A stretch of 60,137 bases of DNA from NCBI GenBank assembly GCA_944386205.1, contig CALXAE010000001.1, forward strand, positions 1 to 60,137, in the 5' to 3' direction. A program made the position numbers and the translations under genes. The notes below the pieces were generated by a model that worked only from the letters and a program-made list of their open reading frames with translations, did not search any database and was not told where the DNA came from. Origin of the DNA: an uncultured Clostridia bacterium. GTDB taxonomy: Bacteria > Bacillota > Clostridia > TANB77 > CAG-508. Shown here piece by piece: positions 22,301 through 42,701 of the stretch (position 1 is the stretch's first letter; the number at the start of each line of letters is the position of its first letter).

Positions 22301-25300
22301 TTATTTTAGAACTTTTTTCTTGATAATGACAATACCTACACCTATAACAACTAATACAGTAATTCCAATAATTCCATAAGTAATATATTGTATACTGTCA
22401 GTACCTGTTGGTGGAGTGATAACAATTTCTACCTCATCGTCATCAGGCTCATCTCCTACATAAGTATCTGTATCCGGATCATAAGATTCATTTGTTGTTG
22501 GATCATAGTTTCCAGGAATTGATGTTGTTGGTGGTTTTCCTCCTGTTAATCTAATAACTTCTATATCATTTTCATAAGCTAAATCATCTGCTGATGTTGA
22601 TAATTGTCTTGATACAATCATGCTAGAATCCACAGCTCTTGTTCCTGGTTCCATATTTTGGAATATCGCACTCTTTAAGTGTATTGTATTTTGTAATCCG
22701 CTAACCGTGTCATAAATTTCTTCTGCAAGAATTGTTCCTCTCATATCTGGTGTTATATTTATAGCTTCCCAGTTAGTTGTATCACTATTTTGTAATACCA
22801 ATTCTTCTGGTAAGTAGTCATACATATCAACTACTGAAGTGATTGACCAGTTTGCATTTCCTTCTGGTACATCACCATAAATATAATAATCTTCATCATT
22901 ATAATCTATTTCACAATTACTATTATCTACTGAAATTTCATATGTAATTCTTAAAGTTGCCCCTTGGATAATTTCATTATCAATTTCAATGTACACATCA
23001 CCATTATCCAATCTTCTAACACCTGATATGTTTTGTGATCTTGGGTCACCTTCAATAATATTTGTTCCGTTTGTTAAAAGAATTTGAATATATCCAATAT
23101 CCTTATTAACCTCTAATTCTTGTTGAGGTCTTTTGATAATACCAAAGTCAATATTATCAAAAATGAATTTCAAGTCTTCCCCATACTCACTAATATTATC
23201 ATGATTAACATCATAATCCATTAGAATTTCAAATCTTCTTGTATCTGCACTAATTTCTGATAATATTCCATTTGTTACTGTGTCATAGTTGATATCTTGG
23301 TTAGGAGAACTTGGATCTATTCTGTCATTAATAACATCTTCATTATCTTTTGCATCTGATAATCTAGTTGCTCCTGTATTACTTGTTTCCTCTCTATACC
23401 AGTAGTCATCCATAGCTTCTGCTGCTGATTTATCTCCACCTCTGTAAATTGTAGATTTATAATTATCTGTATCTACATTTTCTATAACATTTCCATTTAT
23501 ATCTACAATTACACTATTATCTCCATATGTATATCTTAATACATATCTTGATGGTATTACACCCTCAAGGCTATAATCCCCAAATCCACTTGTCGTTACA
23601 CTTGCAGGAACAGGATCTGATTGATCTTCTTGATATAAATTTGCTAATGATAAATTTCCTGCATCATCTACTGTCATTAACTCTACAGTAACATTATTAA
23701 CTACATTTTCATCTGCTCCATAAATACCGTCACCTTTTCTTTCTTTGTTATAACCTGTTTGTTCTAGTAAGTCTTGAATTGCACTGTCTTCCCAAACTTT
23801 ACCTTGAATATTTCTTCCTTCTATAACTTGTAAGATTAATGATGGTGCTCTATCTGTATCATCTTCAAATGTATCTGTATTTGTTGGTGTACTATTATCT
23901 GGTGCAGAGTCTAAGTCTATTCCAGCATATACTTGACTATATCCTTCATCACTATATGTTGAATATGAATTTACCTCTGTTACAGAACTTAATGTTACAT
24001 CTTCATTTAATATACTATTTACTGCATCATTATTTAATTGATATGTTATTGTAATTTCTGATGTATCTTGATATCTTATTTGCTCATTTAAATTTATTGT
24101 TAGTTTTCTATATCCATCTGCATTATAATTGTCATTAGTTGTATTTAAGATATTTCCGTTTGCATCTCTTACAACAATATTTTCATATCTTGCATCATAG
24201 TAATTTACTAAGCTTCTTACATTATTATATAGATTTGTTGATTCATTTCTGATTTTTACTCTATATGTTACAAATATTTGTAAGCTTCCTTCATTTCCTG
24301 GTTGTCCATTATAGATAAGATCTGAAGAATATACTTCTCTTGAATATGAATTTGACAAATATTTATTTTCAAATTTTACACTTACATTAAAGCCATCTCC
24401 TCCTGCATAATCTTCTGGATCATTATATCTTTGGCTATATTCATATGTATGTGTATATCCATTTAAGCTAATTTGTACTTCTTCCATATCTTGTGTTATC
24501 GCCAAGTCTGGCATTTCTCTTTCTTCTACACCTAGATTTAATCCTCCTATTTCTACTATACTTGATTGTCTGATTTGGTCTGGTGTGTAATCTGTACATA
24601 ATATATTGCTTGCTCTTGATTCTGTAACTGCTTGAATTATATATTGATCATATACTCCTGCAATTGGATAAAGTTGTCCTTCATATCCATATAATACATT
24701 ATCTCCGTATATAACACTGCTTGCATGATTTCCTCTATTATAGCTTATATTATAAGTATGTTGTCCATTTGTATTATATGCACCTGTTTCATCTATTGTA
24801 GCATAATTATTGTTAAATTCATCTCTTAATGCTTCATCTGTTGCTGTATTTGTATATCCTGATACTACATTTCCTTCTCCATCTGCTGATGCACTAGTTG
24901 CAAAGTTAAGTCTAACATCAATTGATTTATAACTCATACCATTATATTCAAATTCAACATATGCTCCTACTAAATCATCTATTCTGATTTTTACTGCATT
25001 TGGATTTTCATCATAGTTACCGAAAACATATTCTCCATTAGAATTTGTTACAGTTTGTGCTAATATTTCTCCATTTGCATTTTTTAGTCTAACTGTTACA
25101 TTTGCTAATCTTTCGTCATATGTTCCTTCATGCCATTCATAATCTTTTATGCTTTCTTTGCTTTCTGCTCTATCTTCCCAAGCATATCCTCTTATTTTAA
25201 CATATTCTCTTCTGTTTGTTGCACTTAAATTTGTTACATTTTCTCCTTTTGTTACTACTAAATTAGAAGTGATTACTTTTGGAACATCTTCATAACCGAA

Positions 25301-42701: not shown

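Follow-up and report, generated by a model that had tools for sequence, protein, structure and literature searches.

What do two adjacent, duplicated pairs of giant surface protein genes provide to a gut bacterium, and why do the two genes of each pair stay together? The question is raised by a stretch of 60,137 nucleotides (the window, in the following) from an uncultured Clostridia bacterium, which is one contig (CALXAE010000001.1) of a 79% complete metagenome bin, totalling 1.54 Mb over 131 contigs (assembly GCA_944386205.1). Four open reading frames (ORFs) follow each other on its minus strand, exactly at the coordinates given by an earlier note on this DNA: A1 (37779-42701, 1640 amino acids, aa), B1 (33819-37763, 1314 aa), A2 (28255-33540, 1761 aa) and B2 (22301-28228, 1975 aa). 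Positions are those of the window, minus strand, unless otherwise indicated. The four genes probably form two ancient, tandem two-gene operons, a fixed feature of their clade, where B is a thioester adhesin and A a rod, the two being made together. B is a new, very divergent branch of the class II thioester TIE adhesins; as a kind of Gram-positive surface system it was already known.

A search of PDB chains by sequence retrieved nothing for A1 and, for B1, one weak CnaB-type match, so that structures had to be predicted. The AlphaFold2 model of the B1 head (residues 28-300, encoded at 36864-37682) rests on 44 homologues and features a mean predicted local distance difference test score (pLDDT) of 94. 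When compared to PDB by Foldseek, counting matches at E up to 0.001, it retrieves only four structures, all of them class II thioester domains. EfmTIE86 (6fwy) is found at E about 1e-6 and BaTIE (6fwv) at E about 6e-5, with probabilities of 0.99-1.00 over about 270 aligned columns. The two hallmarks of the class, an inserted beta-sandwich and a long beta-hairpin carrying the Gln (PMC6194298), are both present in the model: strands 146-212 form the inserted sandwich, and strands 219-241 and 250-271 the long hairpin, with a Gln near its tip (model numbering). The thioester-like N-terminal domain, proposed for B by the earlier note, is thus borne out, as to its fold, by both model and structural matches.

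In class II domains, the bond-forming Cys is located in a [YFL]C-hydrophobic-hydrophilic motif, and the bond-forming Gln in a weak, universally conserved hydrophobic-Q-hydrophilic-hydrophobic-hydrophobic motif; the Gln and Trp of a further motif in helix 2, TQxx-hydrophobic-W, are not essential for the bond (PMC6194298). B1 and B2 each fit both bond motifs: the Cys is found in FCVE in B1 (Cys51, 37605-37616) and in FCIE in B2 (Cys68, 28019-28030), the Gln in YQNLI in both (Gln275, 36930-36944, and Gln314, 27278-27292, respectively). The B2 motif had been described as degenerate: this was mistaken. Conservation was counted over 77 B proteins. The Cys51 position is a Cys in 74 of them, the other three showing gaps, and the Gln275 position is a Gln in all 77. 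The helix motif, VQNAIW in B1 (residues 110-115, 37419-37436) and MQRAIY in B2, sits in a predicted helix and retains its Trp in 75 out of 77 proteins, while its Gln (Gln111 in B1) is kept in only 42. Because of these frequencies, Cys51-Gln275 in B1, and Cys68-Gln314 in B2, are the likely thioester pairs. The Gln of VQNAIW, formerly suggested as bond former, has to be abandoned, the published motif being the other one (PMC6194298); the Cys51-Gln111 pairing was accordingly rejected, as Gln111 is replaced in 35 out of 77 proteins, mostly by Ala, Ser, Lys or Arg.

Behind the head, B1 features one SpaA/CnaB-type domain (residues 299-405), a beta-rich middle part of 640 residues, including an SdrD-B/CarboxypepD_reg sandwich, a C-terminal module homologous to that of A, the sequence TPNTG, a membrane helix and a KKK tail; a signal peptide precedes the head. 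B2 is similarly arranged: signal peptide, thioester-type domain (residues about 30-335), six SpaA/CnaB-type repeats (25214-27214), a middle part like that of B1 and a TPPTG tail. In scans with Pfam and NCBIfam, where matches were reported at E up to 0.01, Pfam identifies SpaA (CnaB-type fold) in two stretches of B1 and six of B2, in addition to SdrD_B/CarboxypepD_reg, as expected from the Cna-B and SdrD-B units noticed before. A beta-sandwich stalk, an adhesive domain and a surface anchor, the three criteria for fibrillar adhesins, are all found in B. As modelled, B belongs to the TIE-type fibrillar adhesins and is predicted to bond covalently through its tip. Since it is provided with both a stalk and a sorting signal, A is not required in the stalk role which the earlier note offered as one example.

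B is laid out like the class II TIE proteins BaTIE of Bacillus anthracis, EfmTIE86 of Enterococcus faecium and SaTIE (PMC6194298), with the thioester-type head N-terminal, a CnaB-type stalk behind it and a sortase signal at the C-terminus; both have Cys and Gln as their best-conserved residues, and the inserted sandwich and the Gln-bearing hairpin are also shared. The distance from them is nevertheless large. Sequence identity to the solved class II proteins is about 10%, and Cys and Gln are separated by 224-246 residues, as compared to 171-204 in the solved structures (PMC6194298). B is also much longer (1314-1975 aa), with 640 residues of unnamed beta domains in its middle part, it carries TPxTG rather than LPxTG, and its gene always follows that of a partner, A. 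A class II thioester surface adhesin for contact between cell and target is also reported from pLS20 of Bacillus subtilis (PMC8092201); its gene belongs to a plasmid conjugation operon, while the A-B genes are chromosomal and occupy a fixed site, flanked by genes for cell division on one side and for sporulation on the other, where transfer genes are absent.

A, in turn, is predicted to be a stalk. In A1 a signal peptide is followed by about eight Ig-like beta-sandwiches (residues 36-850), DUF11/CLIPPER repeats (about 851-1290), an SdrD-B domain (1301-1432), a C-terminal DUF11-like module (1433-1606), the sequence SIRTG, a membrane helix and a KRK tail. A2 contains five DUF11 stretches, a linker rich in Pro, Asp and Glu, SdrD-B, the C-terminal module and an SIRTG tail. 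Pfam reports three to five DUF11 stretches, plus SdrD_B, in agreement with the earlier reading of these repeats; DUF11 is a CnaA-like isopeptide stalk domain, renamed CLIPPER (PMC12617251). The model of A1 residues 36-850 (AlphaFold2, pLDDT 90.4) is all-beta, with about eight sandwich domains. Its structural matches by Foldseek, namely the Ig-like domains of PrgB (8beg), integrin legs, macroglobulin domains and antigen I/II C123, are all multi-domain stalks with low template modelling scores (TM-scores), as flexible rods would give. Altogether, A is probably an all-beta rod of about 12-14 beta-sandwich domains of the Ig-like, DUF11/CLIPPER and SdrD-B types. With the stalks of described fibrillar adhesins (PMC12617251, PMC9210967) A has in common its tandem DUF11 and SdrD-B domains, as well as signal peptide and C-terminal anchor; it differs by the lack of a recognised adhesive domain and by a tail without the proline of LPxTG-type signals.

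The two pairs are collinear copies of each other, as originally proposed: identity between A1 and A2 is 31% along 1150 residues and rises to 41% in the C-terminal 332, while that between B1 and B2 is 29-33%. Since the copies are only about 30-40% identical, duplication of the A-B pair must be old, judging from sequence. Within each pair B starts closely after A: the gaps of 15 nucleotides (nt) for A1-B1 and 26 nt for A2-B2, carrying respectively AAAGGAGG and GAAAGGAGA as Shine-Dalgarno sites before the ATG, are as the earlier note had read them. Its claim of a clean terminator at the end of each pair also holds, as hairpins with T-runs follow both B genes: the one after B1 (33772-33810) is bordered by A/T runs on both sides, while the one directly after B2 (22260-22300) has a T-run and is two-way. 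A promoter-like site, TTGAAA-17 nt-TATAAT, read from the sequence at 42811-42783, corresponds to the consensus promoter previously assigned to A1, and in 55 of 72 related loci the same TTGAAA/TATAAT pattern recurs upstream of the first A gene, no more than 160 nt away. No in-frame CGG is present in any of the A1, B1, A2 and B2 frames, which are therefore intact, whatever the lineage does at CGG. Transcription of each operon probably runs from a promoter of its own to the terminator behind its B gene.

The 5' leader of A1 also contains, between promoter and ribosome-binding site, the stretch AAAATGCTGAAA(n)TGTGATTA (42733-42755), nearly unchanged in the twelve related loci inspected; it may be a regulatory element.

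The earlier note took the A+B pair to be the unit of evolution, and suggested that its co-occurrence in other genomes be checked. In a sample of 24 genomes of the genus, A is present in 23 and B in 22; neither is found in any of 16 genomes from four other families of the same order. A scan of one genome per species, performed with the N-terminal part of A, produced 224 relatives, and 79 of these loci were fetched with flanks of up to 10 kb. They contain 77 complete A genes, 76 of which are followed by a B gene on the same strand, the lone exception being interrupted by the contig end; 20-21 nt is the commonest spacing. A second A gene starts about 300 nt past the first B in most of the 79 loci, hence the arrangement in two pairs is also old. 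In ten relatives, module maps contain no units other than A-then-B, organized as one to five tandem pairs per genome. All this occurs among A genes of related species which are only 40-76% identical to A1. The hosts of the 79 loci are uncultured gut Clostridia, including Clostridium sp. CAG:343, from human, chicken, rabbit and other samples.

The chromosomal site is fixed, too: the locus lies after pbp2-minC and two small ORFs, and before spoIIE. In the window, the upstream neighbours are mreB, mreC, mreD, pbp2, minC and two small divergent ORFs, and spoIIE is the downstream one. Occurrence in the genus, adjacency, maps and site together make the A+B pair a well supported evolutionary unit, as far as sequence comparison can tell. 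An origin from a mobile island was rejected, as the site is conserved and mobility genes are not present. The two divergent ORFs, located between minC and A1 (42840-43794, plus strand), encode Asn/Ser-rich proteins of 188 and 138 aa, without family match; matches to them precede A in 62-69 of the 79 related loci.

In at least six cases examined, A and B are joined in one uninterrupted frame of 2300-5700 codons. Indicated by locus, genome and contig, they are found in L026 (G007:C12) at 351-8927, L027+L028 (G010:C13) at 20548-29001, L020+L021 (G002:C3) at 16668-23627, L023-L024 (G003:C8) at 2382-19577 and 19854-33725, and L035+L036 (G005:C9) at 20769-29624. At the junction, a complete A tail, composed of xxxTG, membrane helix and basic stretch, is followed at once by a hydrophobic segment resembling a signal peptide and terminated by small residues, for instance VFA/A or TFA/G (an AxA-type site); no Shine-Dalgarno site is found inside these junctions. 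An ordinary domain fusion was rejected, because the A tail is whole, a signal-peptide-like segment comes after it, and an internal Shine-Dalgarno site is missing. The arrangement implies, from sequence, a topology where A would be outside, followed by a helix, a short basic loop inside, a second helix, and B outside; in other words, a polyprotein with a two-helix membrane hairpin, whose halves could be separated by signal peptidase. The single-frame forms support a need for equal co-production of A and B, and also the notion that the A helix spans the membrane, leaving the basic tail in the cytoplasm.

All four proteins of the window have a signal peptide and end in a TG-containing motif, a hydrophobic helix and a basic C-terminal tail. 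The C-terminal modules of A1 and B1 are homologous (BLASTP, E = 4e-11), so the domain that A and B were said to share is real; the conserved x-T-G-G motif, attributed to its end, brings together positions that are not homologous. In the A1-B1 alignment it is the SIRTG of A, rather than the internal VEKTGG/IRLTGG sequences, that pairs with the TPNTG/TPPTG of B, directly before the membrane helix. The motifs are located at 37884-37898 (A1, SIRTG), 28345-28359 (A2, SIRTG), 33921-33935 (B1, TPNTG) and 22403-22417 (B2, TPPTG). They differ at the second position, where the proline of sorting motifs is present in B and absent in A. The difference is maintained in related genomes: of 72 B tails, 68 have the P, 71 the T and all 72 the G, while of 77 A tails 76 have the T and 76 the G, the place of the Pro being taken by I, V or L and never by Pro, for a consensus (S/G)(I/V/L)xTG. 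The B1 tail passes the LPXTG-anchor model TIGR01167, with 19.0 bits against a cut-off of 15.9. TPxTG is also close to the (S/P)PxTG of the substrates of Clostridioides difficile SrtB (PMC4155245), differing from it by the Thr at the first position. For A, the near-invariance of TG favours, from sequence conservation, a signal that undergoes processing over a simple edge of the helix; the tail would serve either as a variant sorting signal, read by another sortase, or just to anchor A in the membrane.

Elsewhere in the same genome, contig C34 encodes tandem large surface proteins of 1635 and 1169 aa (3550-8457 and 8485-11994, minus strand), featuring the same C-terminal module and an SIETG tail, with a different N-terminus and no B-type partner.

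The earlier statement that no sortase is seen is true for the window, which contains no sortase gene, but not for the genome, where seven are encoded outside it, six generic and one of class B. No sortase is found by profile search in any of 99 related stretches, namely the 79 loci fetched by the A query and 20 cut from the ten relatives; as a positive control, the same profile recovers all seven sortases of the own genome. None of the seven reaches the cut-off for class C (pilus-type) sortases. Several of them adjoin small proteins ending in LPKTG, LPQTG, LPVTG, LPNTG or TPKTG. The TPKTG-ending product is encoded next to the class B sortase, which is for this reason a candidate enzyme for the TPxTG of B.

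This sole class B sortase gene lies on contig C67 (1124-2015, minus strand), where the match contains one TAG and extends over two overlapping frames; the gene may be broken or recoded. Its TPKTG-ending neighbour is at 2158-3282 of the same contig. In relative G016, a class B sortase gene (C4:21608-22351) lies downstream of an A-B pair, about 2.8 kb from B; in no other case was a sortase seen close to such a locus.

Taken together, these data suggest the following picture. In a clade of uncultured, small-genome, low-GC gut Clostridia, the operon is a fixed chromosomal feature. A and B are probably made together, possibly by coupled translation, since B starts 15-26 nt past the A stop behind a strong Shine-Dalgarno site. 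After Sec export, B would expose its class II thioester domain at the far end, followed by one to six CnaB-type domains and further beta-sandwiches; judging from fold, motifs and conservation, its Cys-Gln thioester could react with a target amine and bind it covalently. The TPxTG signal would probably be cut by one of the sortases of the genome, and B thereby joined to the cell wall, while A would be displayed on the surface as a rod. Strict A-then-B linkage and single-frame versions indicate that the cell would need both on the same surface, in roughly equal amounts. Most likely, A and B are two parts of one adhesive fibre layer.

Some observations weigh against this picture. The TM-score of the B1 head to solved thioester domains is only 0.29-0.34, and neither Pfam nor NCBIfam reports a thioester-domain family in B at E up to 0.01. 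No adhesive or binding domain is recognised in A by Pfam, NCBIfam or Foldseek, so its role is a guess. As to anchoring, C. difficile SrtB, which cuts (S/P)PxTG, does not cut the proline-less NVQTG in vitro (PMC4155245), which makes the A tail uncertain as a sortase substrate. The class B sortase is not found in two near-complete relatives, G014 (99%) and G022 (100%), both endowed with A-B pairs; for this reason, B is not assigned to this enzyme.

Linkage might reflect common regulation only, if A and B were independent surface proteins sharing an operon, each acting alone in adhesion, spacing or immune shielding. That each has its own signal peptide, stalk and anchor fits this idea, as does the failure of Pfam, NCBIfam and Foldseek scans to recognise an interaction domain. 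It is nevertheless an unlikely one: adjacency is kept in 76 out of 77 cases, across species with A genes only 40-76% identical to A1, duplications always copy the pair and never a single gene, and in-frame joining of A and B recurs. At the other end, the two proteins might be covalently linked in a sortase-built, pilus-like fibre fixed to the wall, where the threonine in the xxxTG of one protein is joined to a lysine of the other, and the two different tail motifs direct the two joining steps. Thioester tip adhesins on sortase-built pili are known, such as Cpa of Streptococcus pyogenes, with its VPPTG-type signal. Two distinct tail types, each conserved (TPxTG in B, (S/G)(I/V/L)xTG in A), seven sortases for few substrates in the genome, and a gene order and 1:1 linkage suitable for a tip-plus-shaft pair are all in line with such a fibre. 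It appears quite improbable, however, as the 99 related stretches contain no sortase gene, no sortase of the own genome reaches the class C cut-off, and A and B, 1300-2000 aa long and provided with their own stalks, are unlike pilins, although no search for pilin motifs was made. Cpa-type pili of S. pyogenes likewise have a thioester protein encoded beside a second surface protein, with sorting-signal-like tails; the A-B locus, in contrast, has no class C sortase in or near it, and A and B are giant multi-domain rods.

A further, rather doubtful possibility is that A and B make up one obligate two-protein fibre, by a chemistry for which this pairing has no precedent, either because a sortase couples the A tail to B, or because the B head captures a lysine of A. 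If so, a dedicated sortase, encoded away from the locus, would use the (S/G)(I/V/L)xTG of A; alternatively, the thioester head of B would bond partner A instead of a molecule of the host. In this case the single-frame versions would represent polyproteins, cut into the two partners by signal peptidase and sortase, with a two-helix hairpin left in the membrane. The duplication itself could be an artefact or a decaying repeat, one pair having been mis-assembled as two in a metagenome bin. The bin is indeed fragmented and incomplete (131 contigs, 79%), and the six similar repeats of B2 could be collapsed by short reads. The chance of this is very small: copies only 30-40% identical are not confusable in assembly, most of the 79 related loci also show a second A about 300 nt past the first B, and all four frames are intact.

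If B is, as preferred here, a thioester adhesin made together with a rod, the finding extends beyond this locus. Covalent thioester adhesins have so far been studied mainly in pathogens; here, a very divergent thioester branch is a core, multiplied feature of widespread uncultured gut commensals of humans, chickens and rabbits, whose small genomes, of 1.3-2.4 Mb, devote 10-50 kb to A-B genes. A constant partner and recurrent in-frame joining make A and B a clear, testable case of two giant surface proteins needed together, and the two conserved tail motifs provide a natural system for the study of substrate choice among several sortases. Compact and confidently modelled, the head of B (residues 28-300) is a candidate for biochemistry, and could seed a new family model. 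In the literature searched, no description was found of the constant A-B operon, nor of its hairpin-joined single-frame forms.

Another surface protein is encoded in the window at 11132-14155 (minus strand): 1007 aa long, it contains BspA-type leucine-rich repeats and a C-terminal type I dockerin, and hints at cohesin-dockerin surface assemblies in this small-genome organism.

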